This document shows, piece after piece, positions 8,462 through 56,268 of a stretch of DNA of 64,000 nt. How positions within the stretch are numbered: position 1 is the first letter of the stretch; the number at the start of each line of letters is the position of its first letter. Source of the DNA: Candidatus Poriferisodalaceae bacterium (GTDB lineage Bacteria; Actinomycetota; Acidimicrobiia; Acidimicrobiales; Poriferisodalaceae); assembly GCA_965247395.1 (NCBI GenBank), contig OZ252012.1, forward strand, positions 242,434-306,433, written 5' to 3'. The position numbers and the translations under genes were made by a program. Below the pieces are notes generated by a model. The model saw only the letters and a program-made list of their open reading frames with translations, searched no databases and had not been told where the DNA came from.

Positions 8462-9249
8462 GTACCAGCCTGAGCCGACTGCGCAAGCTGACGTAACTCC
8501 GATACGGCTGCGGCTTGACCGCCTGGGTGTGCATACAAGGCGCTGCCGGAGACTAAGACGTTGGCACCGGCCTTGGCCGCTGCGCCGACGGTGTTAGCGG
8601 AGATGCCGCCATCAACTTCGATGTCCACGTCTAAGCCGCCTTGCGCTATGGCGTTGCGCAGTGCGGTGACCTTTGGCTCGGCCGCAGCGATGTAGCTCTG
8701 GCCGCCGAAGCCGGGGTTGACGGTCATCACCAACACCATGCTGACTAGATCTAACACTCCCAAAATATTTGTAACAGCGGTAGCGGGGTTTATGGCAACC
8801 GCAGGCTTAGCTCCCAGCTCAGCGATCTTGGAAAGAGTGCGGTGAAGATGTGTGCACGTCTCGCTGTGGACGATCACGATCTCGCAACCTGCCTGCACGT
8901 ATCTATCCAGCAATTTTTCTGGCTCGACCACCATCAGGTGAGCTTCAAACGGAACCGCGCTGTGAGAACGACAAGCGGCGATGACATCCGGGCCAAATGT
9001 CAGGTTCGGCACGAACACTCCGTCCATCACATCCCACTGGATGCGGTCAACGCCCGCTTTCGTAAGAGCCTCGCATTCTTCGCCCAAGCGAGCGAAGTCT
9101 GCCGGCAGAACCGAGGGAACTATTTCTATTTTTCGTGGATGCCAAGTTGGGCTGGCGCTCCCAGTCGGGCGCTTGGAAGAGTTCGCCGCAGCGTCGCTCA
9201 GCTGAGACGCTCCACGATCATCGCCATGCCCTGGCCGCCACCAACGCAC
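8458..9249 (-). CDS. rpe: ribulose-phosphate 3-epimerase
   Basis: Motifs IVPSVLPADF, DVMDGVFVPNLTFG, HLMV, VMTVNPGFGGQ and VDGG. The only canonical in-frame start upstream of the conserved core is GTG 9249, which gives a 40-aa extension overlapping the thiolase gene. Confidence 0.85.
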   Translation of the reverse strand: MRWWRPGHGDDRGASQLSDAAANSSKRPTGSASPTWHPRKIEIVPSVLPADFARLGEECEALTKAGVDRIQWDVMDGVFVPNLTFGPDVIAACRSHSAVPFEAHLMVVEPEKLLDRYVQAGCEIVIVHSETCTHLHRTLSKIAELGAKPAVAINPATAVTNILGVLDLVSMVLVMTVNPGFGGQSYIAAAEPKVTALRNAIAQGGLDVDIEVDGGISANTVGAAAKAGANVLVSGSALYAHPGGQAAAVSELRQLAQSAQAGT

Positions 9250-10430
9250 ATCGACTCCAGGCCAAAGGTCTTGTCACGATCTTCAAGGCCGTGCAGCAGC
9301 GTGGTCATAATGCGAGCACCGGTTTGACCGAATGGGTGTCCCAGCGCAATAGCGCCACCGTTGACGTTGAGCTGATCGGTGATGTCTATGCCCAACTCGT
9401 CGGCCGAAGGAATTACCTGAGCGGCGAACGCCTCGTTGATTTCAACCAGGTCAATGTCGTTCATTGACATGCCTGCGCGATCAAGAGCGCGTTTGCAGGC
9501 TTCAATCGGCCCCAATCCCATGATCTCTGGGTTCAGTCCGGTAACAGCGGTGGAAATGATGCGCGCCATAGGTGTAATGCCGAGCTCTTCGGCACGCTTG
9601 CGGCTCATCACCACTACCGCCGCCGCGCCATCATTTAGCGGGCAAGCGTTGGCAGCAGTAATGCGTCCGTCGGGCCTGAAGGCTGGTTTCAACTGCGACA
9701 CTGCCTCAAGCGTCACTCCTGCACGAGGACCATCGTCTTTGTCAACCACGGTGCCGTCAGGCAAAGTCAACGGAGTGATGTCCATCTCAAAGAAGCCACG
9801 AGCAATTGCGTCCTCAGCCTTGTTTTGACTCAGCACGCCGTACTCGTCCATGGTTTTGCGGCTAACACCCTTTAGCTCGGCCACATTTTCAGCGGTCTGG
9901 CCCATGGAGATGTAAAGGTCGGGCAAGCCCACCTGCGGCGTCCAGTCACCCTGGCCACCCTGTTCGCGAACCTTGGTGCGCTCACCGGGAGCAAGAAAAA
10001 CTGAGTTGGTGGTGCCGGGCAGGCTGTCTGCGTTGCCCTTTTCATAGCGGCTAACACACTCAACACCAGCAGAGATAAACGCATCGCCCTCACCGGACTT
10101 AATCGCGTGAGCTGCCATACGAATGGTCTGCAGGGAGGAAGAGCAGTAGCGGTTGACAGTGGTGCCAGGCACGTTTTCTAGGCCAGCCAGCACTGCAGTG
10201 GCGCGACCGATGTTAAAGCCCTGCTCACCGCCAGGCGAACCGGTGCCCATGATGAGGTCTTCAATTTCATCGTGGGGAAGCTCGGGCACCTTCTCCAGCA
10301 GCTTGGTAACGATCTGGGCGCTCATGTCGTCGGGGCGCATATCCACTAGGGACCCTTTGAAGGCGCGGCCTATTGGGCTGCGTGCGGTAGCGACTATGAC
10401 CGGATCTGTAGCGGCATCTGTGTTTTTCAT
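9198..10430 (-). CDS. acetyl-CoA C-acyltransferase (thiolase)
   Basis: 410 aa with thiolase motifs NRYCSSSLQ, NEAFAAQV, GHPFGQTGAR and CVGGGQGMA. Confidence 0.9.
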   Translation of the reverse strand: MKNTDAATDPVIVATARSPIGRAFKGSLVDMRPDDMSAQIVTKLLEKVPELPHDEIEDLIMGTGSPGGEQGFNIGRATAVLAGLENVPGTTVNRYCSSSLQTIRMAAHAIKSGEGDAFISAGVECVSRYEKGNADSLPGTTNSVFLAPGERTKVREQGGQGDWTPQVGLPDLYISMGQTAENVAELKGVSRKTMDEYGVLSQNKAEDAIARGFFEMDITPLTLPDGTVVDKDDGPRAGVTLEAVSQLKPAFRPDGRITAANACPLNDGAAAVVVMSRKRAEELGITPMARIISTAVTGLNPEIMGLGPIEACKRALDRAGMSMNDIDLVEINEAFAAQVIPSADELGIDITDQLNVNGGAIALGHPFGQTGARIMTTLLHGLEDRDKTFGLESMCVGGGQGMAMIVERLS

Positions 10431-19688: not shown

Positions 19689-22145
19689 ATGCTCTCGTCT
19701 TATCGAGTGCTGGATTTGTCAGACGAGCGGGGGCAACTTGCCGGGCTCATGTTGTCCGACCTCGGAGCAGAGGTGATCTTGATTGAGCCACCCGACGGCT
19801 CACGCTCACGCCAGGTTGGACCGTTTGTTGCCGACAAGAACGAAGACCCAGAGGCTTCGTTGTGGTTTTGGGCCTACAACCGCGGTAAGCGCTCATGCGC
19901 TTTAGATCTGACTGACCCAGAACAGAAGCAGCAGCTTTTGCAGCTGCTTGCGACCGCCGATGTAGTCATCGAATCTTCCGGCCAAAAAACCATGCGCGAA
20001 CTGGGCTTGAGCTACGACGATTTATCTGCGCAGTTTCCACAGCTCGTTTATACGTCGGTGTCTGCATTTGGCAGCACTGGCCCCAAGGCCGACTGGGCTG
20101 CTACCGACCTGGTGATTACAGCGGCGGGAATGTTGGGCCGGCTGATGGGTGACACCGATAGACGGCCTCTGCGCATTCCGCTTGACCAGACGTTTCTACA
20201 TGCGTCAGGTGAGGCCGCTTTTGCCACGCTGATTGCGCTACGCGAACGCAAGCGTTCGGGTCTGGGCCAGCATGTTGACATAAGCGGCCAGCAGACCATC
20301 ACGTTGGCAACCCAGTCGATGGCCTTGTGTCACCTCTACAACTCACCGGAAGCTGTGCGTGTAAGTGGCGGTGTGGAGGTCGGCCCGTTCAACGTTCGTC
20401 TGCGAGCACGCGCTGCCGACGGCTACGTGTCACCGACAATCGTGTTTGGTGAGGCCATCGGCCCGTTCAGCAAACGCTTGTTTGACTGGCTGCATTCGCA
20501 CGGGGCTTGTGCAGATAGCGATCTAGAAATTGATTGGATCGATTTTGTTGAAGGCGTTACGACCGGACGGATTCCGCTGGACGAATACGCCCGCGTTCAA
20601 CAGGTAGCTGCAAAGTATTTTGCGACGCGCACAAAGAAGGAATTACAGGCTGCCGCTCTTAAGCACCGGTTGCTGATAGTGCCGATCGCAACCGTTGCAG
20701 ATGTTGTAGACGAACCGCATTACAAAGAACGTGACTTCTGGTGCGACATTGAAATGCCCTCGTTAGGCGCAGTGAAGTTTCCGGGGCCGTCGGTCAAATT
20801 TTCTAAGACCCCGGTGCAAATCGAAAAGCCACCGCCTCGCGTAGGTGAACACAACGAAGAAGTCTTGGCTGAGCTGCCAGCGAAGGCTTCTGAGCGCACT
20901 GCAACTTCGGGCGCTTCAAACTCACAGCCTGAGCTACCGCTGGCCGGTCTGAAAGTGCTTGATTTCATGTGGGTTATTGCTGGCCCGGCCAGCACGCGCG
21001 TTTTGTCGGACTGGGGCGCCACGGTCGTGCGTGTCGAGTCATCGCACAAGGTGGAGACCGCACGCACCATCCAGCCATTCCTAAACGATGAAGGTGGAGC
21101 CGACAACGCCGCGATCTTTCAGAACATGAACGCTGGCAAGCTTGGCATCGCTATCGATCTTGACAATCCGGCCAGCCGTGAAACGATCGAAGACCTAATC
21201 CGTTGGGCCGACGTGGTTACCGAGTCGTTCTCACCCAAAGTAATGCGCAAGTGGGGTCTTACCTACGAAGACGTCCGCAAGATCAAACCCGACATCATCA
21301 TGGCCTCAAGCTGTCTTTTTGGTCAGACAGGGCCCTTATCGTCGCTGGCGGGTTACGGATCCATGGGCGCTTCGATGTCGGGCTTCTATGAAATGACTGG
21401 CTGGCCCGACCGCGATCCCTGCGGAGTTTTCAATGCCTACACCGATTATGTGTCGCCAAAATTCTTGGGCACCGCACTGCTCGCGGCGTTGGAGCATCGC
21501 GACAATACGGGAGAAGGTCAGTACATAGACATGTCGCAGGTAGAGGCTGCGTTTACTTTCCTCGCACCGGCCTTGCTTGATTACAGGATCAACGATCGGA
21601 TACCTCAGAAGGTAGGCAACGACCACCCGAGGCTGTCCCCGCACGACGTGTTCGCATGCGCGGGCGAAGACAGGTGGGTGGCTATCGCCTGCGAAAACGA
21701 TCAGCAGTGGCGCGCACTGTGCGAGGTTGCCGAGCTTGATAAAAAACTCAACCAACCAGACCTAGCCCAGCTGGACGAACAGGGCCGACGGTCGCTCAGC
21801 GTGGAGATCGCCGAGGCCATCTCCGAATGGACACAAACGCTTGACGATGAGGTCGCTCAGCAAAAACTGCAAGACGTTGGCGTGGCCGCACATTTTGTTC
21901 AAGACTCAGAAACACTGACGAACGATCCGCAGCTAGTGCATCGCCAACATTTTCGCCAGCTGCCTCACAGCACGAACGGCCAGATGTGGGTGGAAGGCCC
22001 AAAGTTTTCAATGTCTCGCAGCACATCCAAACTCGAAAGCGCTGGACCCAGCTACGGCGAGCACACATTCTTCGTGCTTGAAGAAATACTCAACTATGAC
22101 GCTGAGCAAATTGCCGAGCTGGCCGTTGCGGGCGTTCTTGAATAG
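19689..22145 (+). CDS. family III CoA-transferase (CaiB/BaiF), tandem two-module fusion
   Basis: 818 aa, about twice the usual length. Module 1 starts YRVLDLSDERGQLAGLMLSDLGAEVILIEPP. Module 2 starts LAGLKVLDFMWVIAGPASTRVLSDWGATVVRVES near residue 420. A good RBS (AAGGGGGA) precedes the ATG. Confidence 0.85.
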   Translation: MLSSYRVLDLSDERGQLAGLMLSDLGAEVILIEPPDGSRSRQVGPFVADKNEDPEASLWFWAYNRGKRSCALDLTDPEQKQQLLQLLATADVVIESSGQKTMRELGLSYDDLSAQFPQLVYTSVSAFGSTGPKADWAATDLVITAAGMLGRLMGDTDRRPLRIPLDQTFLHASGEAAFATLIALRERKRSGLGQHVDISGQQTITLATQSMALCHLYNSPEAVRVSGGVEVGPFNVRLRARAADGYVSPTIVFGEAIGPFSKRLFDWLHSHGACADSDLEIDWIDFVEGVTTGRIPLDEYARVQQVAAKYFATRTKKELQAAALKHRLLIVPIATVADVVDEPHYKERDFWCDIEMPSLGAVKFPGPSVKFSKTPVQIEKPPPRVGEHNEEVLAELPAKASERTATSGASNSQPELPLAGLKVLDFMWVIAGPASTRVLSDWGATVVRVESSHKVETARTIQPFLNDEGGADNAAIFQNMNAGKLGIAIDLDNPASRETIEDLIRWADVVTESFSPKVMRKWGLTYEDVRKIKPDIIMASSCLFGQTGPLSSLAGYGSMGASMSGFYEMTGWPDRDPCGVFNAYTDYVSPKFLGTALLAALEHRDNTGEGQYIDMSQVEAAFTFLAPALLDYRINDRIPQKVGNDHPRLSPHDVFACAGEDRWVAIACENDQQWRALCEVAELDKKLNQPDLAQLDEQGRRSLSVEIAEAISEWTQTLDDEVAQQKLQDVGVAAHFVQDSETLTNDPQLVHRQHFRQLPHSTNGQMWVEGPKFSMSRSTSKLESAGPSYGEHTFFVLEEILNYDAEQIAELAVAGVLE

Positions 22146-24400: not shown

Positions 24401-25006
24401 CTAGCCGCGGCCCATCGTGAAGAATTCCTCGTTGGGACGCATTGACGTCAGGTGAGCCATGCGGTTCGAAAGCGCAAACAAAGCGGTGATCGCGCCGATG
24501 TCCCAGATGTCGTCTTCGCTGAAGCCGTGGTCGCGTAGCTGTTCGTGGTCGGCCTCTGCTACTTCTGATGGTTTGACAGCCAGCTTGATAGCAAAATCGA
24601 TCATCGCTTTTTGCCGTTCGCTCAGATCCGCTTGGCTGGGATCGACCGCCAACTGGTCAGCCAACATCGGTGCTTTGGAGCGAATGCGCAGGATCGCTCC
24701 GTGAGCGACCACGCAATACGTGCAGTTGTTCGCTCCGCTTGTGGCAACGACGATCATCTCGCGCTCGGCTTTGGTGAGACCACTGTCTCTTTCCATCAAC
24801 GCGTCGTGGTAAGCCATAAAAGCCCGCAACTCATCCGGTCTGTGAGCTAAAGCCAAGAAAACGTTAGGTACAAAGCCGGTTTTGGACTGAATGGCTTCCA
24901 TGCCCACGCGCAGATCTTCAGGAATCTCGGCAATTTCCGGCACCGGAAACCTAGATATAGGTGGTGCTATTGGTTCAGCTACTTGCGAATCCTGCTTGGC
25001 GTTCAT
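24401..25006 (-). CDS. carboxymuconolactone decarboxylase / AhpD-like peroxidase-related protein
   Basis: 201 aa with the AhpD-type redox motif NNCTYCVVAH (CxxC). Confidence 0.8.
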   Translation of the reverse strand: MNAKQDSQVAEPIAPPISRFPVPEIAEIPEDLRVGMEAIQSKTGFVPNVFLALAHRPDELRAFMAYHDALMERDSGLTKAEREMIVVATSGANNCTYCVVAHGAILRIRSKAPMLADQLAVDPSQADLSERQKAMIDFAIKLAVKPSEVAEADHEQLRDHGFSEDDIWDIGAITALFALSNRMAHLTSMRPNEEFFTMGRG

Positions 25007-25056: not shown

Positions 25057-25131
25057 TGGTACGCCCCCTGGGATTCGAACCCAGAACCTGCGGATTAAGA
25101 GTCCGATGCTCTGCCATTGAGCTAGAGGCGC
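25057..25131 (-). tRNA. tRNA-Lys (anticodon CTT), CCA encoded
   Basis: The reverse complement folds as a cloverleaf: acceptor GCGCCTC/GGGGCGT, anticodon loop CTCTTAA, T-arm CTGGG-TTCGAAT-CCCAG, then ACCA. Confidence 0.9.
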
Positions 25132-25165
25132 GAAAGGTCGAACAAAAGTTGTTCTGCACGACTAG

Positions 25166-25240
25166 GCGGACCGAGGGGAATCGAACCCCCGACCTCCAGT
25201 ACCACAAACTGGCGCTCTAACCGACTGAGCTACGACCCGC
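25166..25240 (-). tRNA. tRNA-His (anticodon GTG) with encoded G-1
   Basis: Reverse complement: G-1 + CGGGTCG acceptor pairing with CGGTCCG, anticodon loop TTGTGGT, T-loop TTCGATT, discriminator C opposite G-1. CCA is not encoded. Confidence 0.9.
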
Positions 25241-25242
25241 AG

Positions 25243-26292
25243 GTGTCTCTAAGCATGCTATGGCCGCAACCAGTTCGCTACGCTGACAAGGTGACCGCTC
25301 AGCGTCTTTCTCCGGTTGATTACATCCCCCGTATTACCGCTCAGTATGAAGGTCTGGGGTATGGCGTGTACCGCTGGATGCACAGCGAAGACCCGCCCGC
25401 ATGGGCTCCGCTTTCAAAGCCACTGTCGCAATCACGCTTGGGTTTGATCGCCACCGGCGGTGTTTATGCCGCAGGCCAAACCGCCTTCCATTACAAGGAC
25501 GACACCACCTATAGAGCCATTGCGACCAACACGCCGACCGATAAGTTGCGTGCCACTCACTTCGCCTATGACTTGACTGACGCGCGCAATGACATCAACT
25601 GTGTGTATCCGATTGATGCGTTGCGCGAATCGGTAACCAAGGGCGAGATTGGCGAGCTGGGGCCGAGCGCTTACACGCTGATGGGCGGCATCTACAGCAC
25701 TCGACGTGTAGACGAAGAGCTCATTCCTGAGCTGGTGAAACGTTGCCACGAAGATGCCTTAGATGCCGTGTTGTTGGTGCCCGTCTGACCGGTCTGTCAT
25801 CAGACCGTGGGTCTGATAGCGAGAGCATTGGAGGCGTCCGGCATACCGACCTTGTCGATGTCCAGCGCACGCGATATCACACGCGCTGTGGATCCACCGC
25901 GATCCGTGTATCTCGATTATCCGTTGGGGCACACCTCGGGTCGTCCGTTCGAGCCGAGCCTCAATTACGAGATCATGGTTGACACGTTGGCCGCGTTTGA
26001 AGCGTTGACCGAACCAGGATCAATGGCTCATCTGCGCTATCGCTGGACCGATACCGACGAGTGGAAAAACAAGGTGTTTACGCCGATTAGCGCGGGGATA
26101 AGTAGCGCTGGGTCAGGCAGCGCTGGGATAAGTAGCGCTGAATCGGACAGCATTAAGTCGGGCGCAACCTACGAAGACGATCGAGTGCCGCGTTACGACA
26201 CTCCGCAATATCAAACAGACCTTGATGCCACACATGCCGCTGAGTTGCATGACGGTGAAGACTGTCTGGTTTGCGCAGGTATCGACTATTAA
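25243..26292 (+). CDS. GrdB/PrdB-family reductase-like protein, candidate selenoprotein (TGA 25786-25788 read as Sec)
   Basis: ORFs 25243-25788 and 25807-26292 are in the same frame. They are separated only by the TGA plus six sense codons. The joined reading ...DAVLLVPV-U-PVCHQTVGLIARALEASGIPTLSMSSARD... gives a U-x-x-C motif at the position where this family carries its redox Sec/Cys. A stem-loop follows the TGA. The start is uncertain (GTG 25243 or ATG 25255). Confidence 0.65.
25799..25817 (+). promoter_or_regulatory. candidate bacterial SECIS stem-loop
   Basis: ATCAGACC-GTG-GGTCTGAT forms an 8-bp stem with a G/U-containing apical loop. It starts 10 nt after the in-frame TGA. A competing hairpin CGGTCTG-TCAT-CAGACCG (25790-25807) shares the CAGACC arm. 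Confidence 0.5.
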
Positions 26293-55356: not shown

Positions 55357-56268
55357 GTGAAAAACTCTCAAAGGCCCTCCAAATCAGCGTTTTTGAGCAC
55401 GTTTGGGGTGTTCGGCGGAACGTTTGACCCGCCACATGTTGGCCATGCTTTGGCGCTAAACGCCGCAAGTGAGCAATTGGGCTTGGATTGCATTTATGTG
55501 GTGGTTGCAAATGACCCATGGCAGAAATCGTCTGGCGTAAGCACGCTTGGCGAAGGCATTACGCCCGCTGAGCACAGGCTGGCCATGTGCCAACTGACAT
55601 TTTCCGCTAACGGTGCCGGTCATAACAAGGCCGACCCCGCAGGCACTGTTCAAGCCAACACTGTTCAAGCCAGCGCTGCTCAAACTAGCGGAGCTTCGAT
55701 TTGCGTGAGTGCTTGCGAAATTGAACGAGGCGGCGCCAGCTACACGATTGACACGGTGACAGAGCTGCTTGCCACGACTAGCGCTGCGGCCACCCAGTCC
55801 GGGCTAGTCCAAACTAAATCGGCCCAGTCCGGGCTAGTCCAAACTGAATTGGCCCAGGCTGGACGAGCAAATCTGGTGCTAATTGTCGGCGAAGATGTGG
55901 TTGTTGGTTTGGACTCGTGGCATCGCGCAAGCAGCTTGCGGGAGTTGGTGACGGTTGCGGTGGTGCAGCGCAACCATGAACTAGTCAGGCCGCAACCCAC
56001 AACCGGGTCTCAACCCGCTGCCGAAGGCTCACCCACAACTGGGGATCCGGCAACACCCGAGGTACCTGCCGGTTGGAAGACCGTCACGGTGACGTTGGAC
56101 TTATCGGCGACCATCGGCTCGCAGATAGTCGCAGATGTGTCCAGCACGGACATCCGGCAACAAATCGCAGATGCCTGCCTGCCTACTGGCATAGTTGCGC
56201 CAGAGGCGATGGGCTACATCTCCGCCCATGGGCTCTACTCTCAAACCTCGTATTCTCAGACCCAGTGA
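55357..56268 (+). CDS. nadD: nicotinate-nucleotide adenylyltransferase with ~100 aa of repeat-derived insertions
   Basis: Contains GVFGGTFDPPHVGH and the downstream ISSTDIR-like VSSTDIRQ. At 303 aa it exceeds the ~200 aa usual for this family. GTG start. Confidence 0.8.
   Translation: MKNSQRPSKSAFLSTFGVFGGTFDPPHVGHALALNAASEQLGLDCIYVVVANDPWQKSSGVSTLGEGITPAEHRLAMCQLTFSANGAGHNKADPAGTVQANTVQASAAQTSGASICVSACEIERGGASYTIDTVTELLATTSAAATQSGLVQTKSAQSGLVQTELAQAGRANLVLIVGEDVVVGLDSWHRASSLRELVTVAVVQRNHELVRPQPTTGSQPAAEGSPTTGDPATPEVPAGWKTVTVTLDLSATIGSQIVADVSSTDIRQQIADACLPTGIVAPEAMGYISAHGLYSQTSYSQTQ
55793..55858 (+). repeat. 2.2 x 30-bp in-frame tandem repeat inside nadD
   Basis: CCCAGTCCGGGCTAGTCCAAACTAAATCGG / CCCAGTCCGGGCTAGTCCAAACTGAATTGG / CCCAGG, encoding QSGLVQTKSA-QSGLVQTELA. 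A second 2 x 15-bp repeat (CACTGTTCAAGCCAA) is at 55644-55673. Confidence 0.9.

Follow-up and report, generated by a model that had tools for sequence, protein, structure and literature searches.

A TGA codon predicted to specify selenocysteine in a stand-alone PrdB-like gene of a putative actinobacterium

We analysed a 64-kb stretch of DNA (contig OZ252012.1, positions 242,434 to 306,433; hereafter the window, with coordinates counted from its first letter) in which two open reading frames (ORFs) that share a frame are separated by a TGA codon. From comparison of sequences we judge it very probable that this codon, TGA 25786-25788 in the coding sequence 25255-26292, is decoded as selenocysteine (Sec) and that the gene encodes a stand-alone PrdB-like protein. 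The gene is continuous across the TGA, TGA and Cys are paired in its homologues, the downstream half is under selection and a hairpin just past the TGA is conserved specifically in TGA forms. A first-pass annotation, made from the letters of the window, had proposed that the TGA encodes Sec; homologues with Cys in this column, at least 103 homologues with TGA in it, selection on both halves and covariation in the hairpin all argue for this proposal.

Gene layout and use of TGA in the window

The two ORFs, 25243-25788 (GTG...TGA) and 25807-26292 (GTG...TAA), have one common reading frame, and the sole interruption between them is the TGA, followed by CCG GTC TGT CAT CAG ACC before GTG 25807. 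The joined translation reads ...HEDALDAVLLVPV-*-PVCHQTVGLIARALEASGIPTLSMSSARDITRAV..., with DAVLLVPV just before the TGA; the peptide across the Sec site of the joined protein would be AVLLVPV-U-PVCHQTVGLIAR. Counted from GTG 25243, the joined frame has 349 sense codons. The shared frame with nothing but TGA and six sense codons in between, and the 349-codon read-through protein, had been described in the first-pass annotation, and both were reproduced from the sequence and its translation. As the minus-strand tRNA-His ends at 25239, ATG 25255 (MLWPQP...) is more likely to be the true start than GTG 25243. No ATG, GTG or TTG occurs within 25789-25806. The features of the gene are as follows.

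25255..26292, plus strand: predicted coding sequence of a PrdB-like (Pfam GRDB) selenoprotein, 345 sense codons from ATG 25255 with the Sec codon included, stop codon TAA 26290-26292
25786..25788, plus strand: TGA, predicted to be read as Sec (U177 from ATG 25255), first residue of the U-P-V-C motif
25795..25797, plus strand: TGT, Cys181 of UxxC, presumed resolving cysteine, upstream of any possible restart codon after the TGA

TGA terminates 15 of the 54 non-overlapping ORFs of at least 150 aa in the window, one of the 15 being the N-terminal fragment of this very gene. Among the TGA-ended ORFs are a thiolase (9198-10430, minus strand) and nadD (55357-56268), which the first-pass annotation had rightly cited as examples of TGA in its ordinary role. 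Codon reassignment of TGA was rejected, given the 14 other large ORFs that end in this codon. In an all-frame scan of the 64-kb window we saw no plausible second candidate for a TGA-joined selenoprotein.

Homologues across the TGA column

Among 5.8 billion proteins searched, 45 relatives were found. Fifteen full-length ones (290-350 aa) are continuous at the TGA column, where they carry Cys (n = 10), Thr (n = 4) or W (n = 1); another 15 (∼190-200 aa) terminate exactly at ...LLVPV, and one relative (P0023) is a C-terminal piece that begins at MGLIARALEESGI. The first-pass annotation had suggested checking homologues at this column; they either carry Cys (some Thr) across it or end exactly at it. 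The residues P179, V180, C181, H182 and Q183 are invariant in all 15 full-length sequences and, as had been claimed for a U-x-x-C motif, the Sec/Cys column stands three residues before the invariant Cys181. Since PVCHQ follows the TGA but precedes any codon at which translation could restart, it can be made only by read-through.

Larger collections gave a similar picture. When the N half was compared by phmmer with 1.84 billion cluster representatives, 1015 matches were obtained; among the newly listed top matches, 33 of 149 end at ...P[VILM] (query position 176-177), and most others are fragments cut elsewhere. JGI metagenome contigs were scanned with the exact pattern CCN NTN TGA CCN GTN TGY CAY CA, which detected at least 120 stretches; among the metagenome matches listed, 103 of 120 are true homologues with TGA at this codon and family sequence conserved on both sides. 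Cys occupies the TGA column in 41 genomic loci; the back-translated pattern used to scan genome contigs could detect Cys and Thr forms only, not Sec forms.

Six syntenic relatives of the window gene (L001-L004, L076 and L170; 63-75% identity) keep the TGA together with an intact in-frame downstream half, in a common gene order: tRNA-Lys, tRNA-His, the gene, Nudix, tRNA-Arg, folE. The contigs of L001-L004 encode P0006, a 202-aa N-terminal fragment 75% identical to the N half in the window. In comparisons with L001 and L076, non-synonymous divergence (pN) is 0.22-0.25 in both halves, and synonymous divergence (pS), at 0.66-0.81, is near saturation. As non-synonymous divergence is equal in the two halves with synonymous sites near saturation, the C half appears to be translated and constrained.

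In two 443-aa relatives (P0029 and P0030) the N terminus of the PrdB-like N half, which here too stops at the Sec codon, carries a fused alpha/beta-hydrolase domain (PF12697, PF00561). Members of the actinobacterial subfamily (window 26200-26292; L001, L076, L096 and L170) have a conserved C-terminal C-L-V-C-A-G-I-D-Y/F, a second CxxC, that is missing from the aligned proteobacterial Cys-form homologues; some other Sec forms end in C-P-[ST]-C-V-F-L instead.

The C-terminal part of the window gene has a further peculiarity:

26088..26140, plus strand: 15-bp in-frame tandem repeat, 3.5 copies, low-complexity insert GISSAGSGSAGISSAE (Tandem Repeats Finder)

The insert is missing from most homologues (alignment columns 601-640 are gapped in the others), and in much the same position relative P0023 carries several copies of another repeat, NDAGQ. 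The insert is a variable low-complexity loop.

A SECIS-type hairpin downstream of the TGA

Bacterial selenocysteine insertion sequence (SECIS) elements have a UGA spacing of ∼11 nt, and SelB recognizes a G/U in the loop. The first-pass annotation had reported a stem-loop at this distance. We found such a hairpin to be present and conserved in TGA forms, with covariation at three pairs:

25796..25820, plus strand: bacterial SECIS-type hairpin, lower stem G25796-C25820 and U25797-G25819, upper stem 25799-25806 with 25810-25817, apical loop GUG 25807-25809

The upper-stem hairpin, 25799-25817, is CAUCAGACC-GUG-GGUCUGAUA, and its stem starts 10 nt after the TGA. Numbered from the T of TGA (position 1), the upper stem joins positions 14-21 and 25-32 around the 3-nt loop GUG, and the lower stem pairs 11-12 with 34-35. 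The folding energy is -10.5 kcal/mol for the upper hairpin alone and -12.5 kcal/mol with the lower stem. In position and shape the hairpin agrees with the known features of bacterial SECIS elements, a stem-loop directly downstream of UGA and a small apical loop containing G (PMC1088965).

In an alignment of 99 distinct TGA-form sequences (A3), 89% of the cells are paired. Compensatory changes were observed at pair 15-31 (C-G in 57 sequences, U-A in 31), pair 18-28 (G-C 88, A-U 8) and pair 19-27 (A-U 68, U-A 23). The covariation score was matched by none of 500 column shuffles, and in control registers shifted by 1-3 columns just 16-39% of the cells are paired. Several of the compensatory changes are synonymous on one or both sides: CAG/CUG is replaced by CAA/UUG, and His CAU/CAC tracks Ile AUN/Val GUN.

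Conserved codons overlap the stem, and 41 Cys-form genes from genomes therefore served as a control for codon-driven pairing. Pair 18-28 is kept at a rate of 1.00 in Sec forms versus 0.59 in Cys forms, pair 19-27 at 0.95 versus 0.07 and pair 20-26 at 0.99 versus 0.68. The Ser codon at positions 25-27 is AGU in 48 Sec forms and AGC in two, in contrast to AGC in 23 Cys forms and AGU in one. The mean hairpin energy is -11.6 kcal/mol for Sec forms and -8.7 kcal/mol for Cys forms (Mann-Whitney p = 5e-5).

The apical loop differs between the two sets as well. Of 100 Sec forms, 92 have GUN as the loop codon (G in 98/100, U in 94/100), whereas the residue encoded there in Cys forms is variable (I, A, M, V, T). 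Val is thus fixed in Sec forms at a position that varies in Cys forms, as would be expected if the loop G-U-N is kept for RNA reasons. The start codon assigned by the ORF finder to the second ORF, GTG 25807-25809, is the apical loop of the hairpin.

These observations bear on whether the gene could be genuinely split, with an N half and a C half starting at GTG 25807 that assemble after translation. A GTG-initiated ORF, 25807-26292, does exist in the ORF list, and databases hold the C half separately (P0023; genes of 156 aa and 190 aa). We consider this extremely unlikely: the invariant PVCHQ, with the motif Cys, lies upstream of GTG 25807 and would be lost; that GTG is the apical loop of a conserved hairpin and is kept as G-U for that reason; the Cys forms are single polypeptides; and no homologue was found with a gap, a ribosome-binding site or a frame shift between the halves.

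Four of the full-length relatives (P0001, P0005, P0011 and P0016) have Thr in place of Sec/Cys, with the rest of the T-P-V-C-H-Q motif intact. In a locus from a Desulfobacterales metagenome-assembled genome (MAG; L043, 8001-8888) the Thr codon is ACT, and seven of the eight hairpin pairs are still kept.

An Rfam scan of the window at the gathering threshold detected tmRNA and five tRNAs only, and at E≤10 the region 25600-26000 gave chance matches with no SECIS family among them. Bacterial SECIS elements are poorly represented in Rfam.

Sec-decoding machinery and the possibility of a true stop

The window contains tRNA-Pro, tRNA-Gly, tig-clpP-clpX, mreBCD-pbp2-rodA and a luciferase-like F420-type oxidoreductase, at 56.8% GC; gene content and order suggest that the host is an actinobacterium. 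Complete Sec machinery has been described in all Actinomarinales, another order of Acidimicrobiia (bioRxiv 10.64898/2026.04.03.716425), which makes Sec decoding in this class plausible by analogy.

Several points weigh against the decoding of this TGA as Sec. No tRNA-Sec was detected in the 64-kb window by tRNA and Rfam scans, and no selA, selB or selD is recognizable among its ORFs, just as the first-pass annotation had said of selA, selB, selC and selD; nor were tRNA-Sec and selD found near the gene in 60 related loci. A tblastn search of 1.35 Mb of related loci with an approximate sequence of E. coli SelD as query gave no selD match. The hairpin is statistically unexceptional in this single sequence (z = -1.0 for the 71-nt fold), its significance being derived from the comparative data and not from the single-sequence fold. 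The outer stem (CAC CAG ... CUG GUG) follows from the amino acids and persists in Cys forms too, since it is dictated by the His-Gln...Leu-Val codons. The Cys control set is narrow, being mostly GC-rich Burkholderiales, and its composition could contribute to the codon differences. Finally, the selenium content of the stand-alone subfamily members is a prediction made from sequence.

If the TGA were a real stop, whether in a pseudogene (by nonsense mutation or sequencing error) or in a relic carried by a genome that does not decode Sec, only a 177-aa N fragment would be made. One could support this by the fact that no Sec machinery is visible in the window, that TGA otherwise serves as a stop there and that gene callers treat it as such. 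Still, we regard a real stop as very unlikely, since more than 100 independent homologues share this TGA, the syntenic relatives at 63-75% identity among them. In these TGA homologues the downstream half is intact and under the same constraint as the upstream one, synonymous sites being saturated, and the SECIS pairs are maintained by compensatory and synonymous changes. A recent loss of Sec decoding in this one genome is conceivable, but nothing points to it.

Protein family assignment

Profile searches were run with the joined protein, U being replaced by C. The match to Pfam GRDB (PF07355) is above threshold (33 bits, gathering cut-off 22) and stops two residues short of Sec, at profile position 345 of 347. 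The NCBIfam PrdB equivalog TIGR04483 (cut-off 300 bits) gave 151.6 bits over residues 47-265 (profile 17-235 of 238), with an alignment uninterrupted across the TGA, and the selenoprotein B subfamily TIGR01918 scored 47.9 bits against 65.45, over the C-terminal part of the profile only. Matches to the GrdH, GrdF and GrdB profiles were weaker and restricted to C-terminal halves, in which profile positions near 350 align with residue 177.

Judged by these profile scores, the gene is a GRDB-superfamily member of PrdB-like size and no equivalog of PrdB or GrdB, because the scores are below the NCBIfam cut-offs and the partners PrdA, GrdE and GrdA are missing from the neighbourhood; the label ‘PrdB’ is valid at superfamily level only. 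The GrdB/PrdB-family name given in the first-pass annotation thus stands for the superfamily (PF07355 above cut-off) and falls for the equivalogs (151.6 < 300, no partners nearby). Its suggestion to search the joined protein against family profiles gave PrdB/GrdB matches that are continuous across the TGA.

That the protein is a true D-proline reductase PrdB, or protein B of a glycine, sarcosine or betaine reductase, acting in Stickland-type reductive metabolism, seems to us highly improbable. TIGR04483 PrdB is indeed the best NCBIfam match, JGI and NCBI pipelines assign the name ‘D-proline reductase (dithiol) PrdB’ to relatives and selenoproteome surveys place the family under PrdB (PMC1088965, PMC2398784). 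Against these stand the two scores, far under the equivalog cut-off for TIGR04483 and under that of TIGR01918, the aerobic-actinobacterial look of the host genes (F420/luciferase-like oxidoreductase, CO/xanthine dehydrogenase-type genes) and the gene context: PrdA, PrdC, GrdA, GrdE and GrdC are encoded nowhere within ∼8 kb of the gene in the window, and no recurrent neighbour cluster of these genes was seen across 152 loci.

Predicted structure and proposed mechanism

A structure was modelled with AlphaFold2 from the Cys homologue P0003, which is 47% identical to the window protein in the multiple alignment (45% by BLASTP). The model (pLDDT 93.1, pTM 0.92) has the Sec/Cys position between strand 162-166 (LLVPV) and helix 170-185 (PVCHQ...ARHLEQ), an arrangement typical of redox-active dyads at the N-terminal end of a helix. 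Searching PDB with a sequence profile gave no match, and a Foldseek search of the model against PDB gave none at E≤1e-3 (best E = 0.03); the GRDB/PrdB fold appears to be structurally uncharacterized.

From the sequence data we infer Sec insertion in this organism, a redox cycle and the kind of substrate, as follows. The hairpin 25796-25820 would act as a bacterial SECIS, presenting G-U in its apical loop; SelB-GTP-Sec-tRNASec would bind it and deliver Sec to the UGA, and translation would proceed into PVCHQ and the C-terminal half. Sec at the end of the beta-strand and Cys at the start of the next helix would form a U-x-x-C selenol/thiol redox centre. By analogy to PrdB and GrdB, Sec would be the nucleophile and would form a selenenylsulfide with Cys181, to be re-reduced by a thiol system of thioredoxin or glutaredoxin type. 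This Sec-nucleophile/resolving-Cys cycle, borrowed from PrdB and GrdB, is the most defensible mechanism. The substrate is probably not D-proline, since no pyruvoyl subunit PrdA is encoded near the gene. One could speculate, as a doubtful suggestion, that the stand-alone PrdB-like proteins are a distinct family of selenol/thiol reductases that work with no pyruvoyl subunit, possibly on CoA-thioester substrates.

Genomic neighbourhood

Two features next to or upstream of the gene deserve listing.

25057..25239, minus strand: tRNA-Lys(CTT) and tRNA-His(GTG), divergent from the gene
19689..22145, plus strand: 818-aa two-domain family III CoA-transferase (PF02515, two stretches), 3.6 kb upstream of the gene

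The tRNA-His ends 3 nt before GTG 25243 and 15 nt before ATG 25255, an arrangement also seen in L001, L003 and L076. With a gene start 3-15 nt from the tRNA-His 5′ end, the layout implies that the promoters of the gene and of tRNA-His must overlap each other's genes or else that the mRNA is leaderless. A promoter scan found no sigma-70-like site in the region 25165-25260, and the promoter/terminator scan gave nothing useful.

The upstream neighbours are an AhpD-like CMD protein (minus strand), an alanine dehydrogenase, a zinc-ADH-type oxidoreductase and the 818-aa double CoA-transferase; downstream are a Nudix-like protein, tRNA-Arg and folE. With its C-T-Y-C motif, the AhpD-like protein (24401-25006) counts as a Cys form; the AhpD-like proteins with CxxU also make up a selenoprotein family that is common in the sea. 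In relatives L001-L003 the PrdB-like gene is preceded by two CMD genes.

A same-strand CoA_transf_3 gene adjoins 16 of 33 Cys loci versus one of 23 Sec loci. The CoA-transferases near Cys forms are often a fused double of ∼818 aa or a tandem pair (L008, L010 and L016 have a pair or fused double); the observations on family III CoA-transferases cover window 19689-22145 and loci L008, L010, L016, L047, L125 and L170. The 818-aa double of the window, whose position 3.6 kb upstream is kept in L170, is closest to the doubles directly downstream of the Cys forms in L010 and L016 (37% identity over the full length). Such proximity may reflect a functional partnership between CoA-transferase and PrdB-like gene, with a weak link for this locus.

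A glutaredoxin gene is located just downstream in six of 74 Sec loci and four of 37 Cys loci. It encodes a small protein (PF00462, CxxC) on the same strand, at about +390 to +690 from the Sec/Cys codon (L061, L062, L074, L118, L164, L023 and L039), and by its position could serve to reduce the UxxC centre; no such gene occurs in the window. In a few Sec loci genes for enoyl-CoA hydratase, MaoC or acyl-CoA dehydrogenase adjoin the gene. A conserved operon partner for Sec forms was rejected, as 1/23 for CoA-transferase and 6/74 for glutaredoxin are too weak for assignment of function. The neighbourhood hints at chemistry linked to acyl-CoA and at a thiol reductant, but not strongly enough for a substrate to be assigned.

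Annotation of relatives in public records

Close relatives of the N half have been deposited from Acidimicrobiia MAGs (Candidatus Poriferisodalaceae, Acidimicrobiaceae, Acidimicrobiales) as entries of 164-189 aa that stop at the Sec codon and bear the name PrdB or ‘selenoprotein B family protein’. Across NCBI, JGI and ENA records (P0006, the P0015 cluster, P0023) the lengths are 164-202 aa, and the C half is a separate hypothetical protein or is uncalled; in relatives it was deposited as separate genes of 156 aa and 190 aa. Public records do split or cut the gene, as the first-pass annotation had predicted that automated annotation would.

Joining the fragments recovers the active-site motif and half of the protein, and the 99-sequence SECIS alignment with its Cys-form control could serve as a covariance model for automatic annotation. 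The case can be demonstrated cleanly and is useful for annotation, but it is unlikely to surprise a specialist. It adds an Acidimicrobiia-type actinobacterium to the users of a highly abundant marine selenoprotein family and implies that this lineage carries Sec-decoding machinery; for the stand-alone form, the family label ‘D-proline reductase’ is probably a misnomer. The question touched on here, the role of an abundant orphan selenoprotein in aerobic marine bacteria, is not made newly testable by this locus alone.

Comparison with known systems

This is not a new selenoprotein family; it has been known from marine metagenomes since 2005. ‘Proline reductase PrdB’ (pfam07355, UxxC) was among the most abundant marine selenoprotein families in earlier surveys (Zhang, Fomenko & Gladyshev 2005, PMC1088965; Zhang & Gladyshev 2008, PMC2398784), with 42 Sec genes in the Sargasso Sea (PMC1088965) and 235 Sec and 110 Cys genes in the Global Ocean Sampling data (PMC2398784). 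The window gene fits the published description of this marine stand-alone ‘PrdB’ UxxC family: common to both are the Pfam domain, the U-x-x-C motif, TGA/Cys pairing, a SECIS hairpin whose small apical loop contains G and high marine abundance, seen here as at least 120 metagenome stretches. The surveys pooled the stand-alone form with clostridial PrdB and gave no Acidimicrobiia host; family-specific hairpin covariation and gene context, both given here, were not part of them. Our literature search on the marine PrdB family did not find the distinction between stand-alone and true PrdB, an Acidimicrobiia host, family-specific SECIS covariation with a Cys-form control or the association of Cys forms with CoA-transferases.

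The hairpin resembles bacterial SECIS elements of the E. coli fdhF/fdnG type (consensus of Zhang & Gladyshev 2005), which likewise lie inside the coding sequence, ∼10-11 nt after UGA, and have a small loop with G (and U). It differs in having a family-specific sequence, because it overlaps the codons H-Q-T/S-V-S/G-L-V/I.

GrdB, GrdF and GrdH (PF07355, TIGR01917/01918) are ∼435 aa long, and the window protein matches their C-terminal 220 residues. Residue 177 of the window protein aligns near profile position 350, which we take to be about where the Sec of these proteins is located. In contrast to them, the window protein does not have their N-terminal 215 residues and the second Cys of UxxCxxC, and the partners GrdA, GrdE and GrdC are missing near its gene.

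With PrdB of Clostridium sticklandii and C. difficile (TIGR04483; Kabisch et al. 1999) the window protein shares homology over ∼220 residues and Sec at the equivalent UxxC position, and the chemistry of Sec nucleophile and resolving Cys is probably the same. However, the window protein scores half of the equivalog cut-off, has extra segments of ∼45 residues N-terminally and ∼80 C-terminally, and its gene has no pyruvoyl subunit PrdA and no PrdC, D, E or F nearby; the clostridial host is a Stickland fermenter, whereas the window host appears to be an aerobic actinobacterium. In wider context, a GrdB-like protein has been implicated in fluoroacetate reduction (PMC10838667), and the GRDB superfamily to which the window gene is assigned thus cleaves C-N and probably also C-F bonds alpha to a carboxylate.

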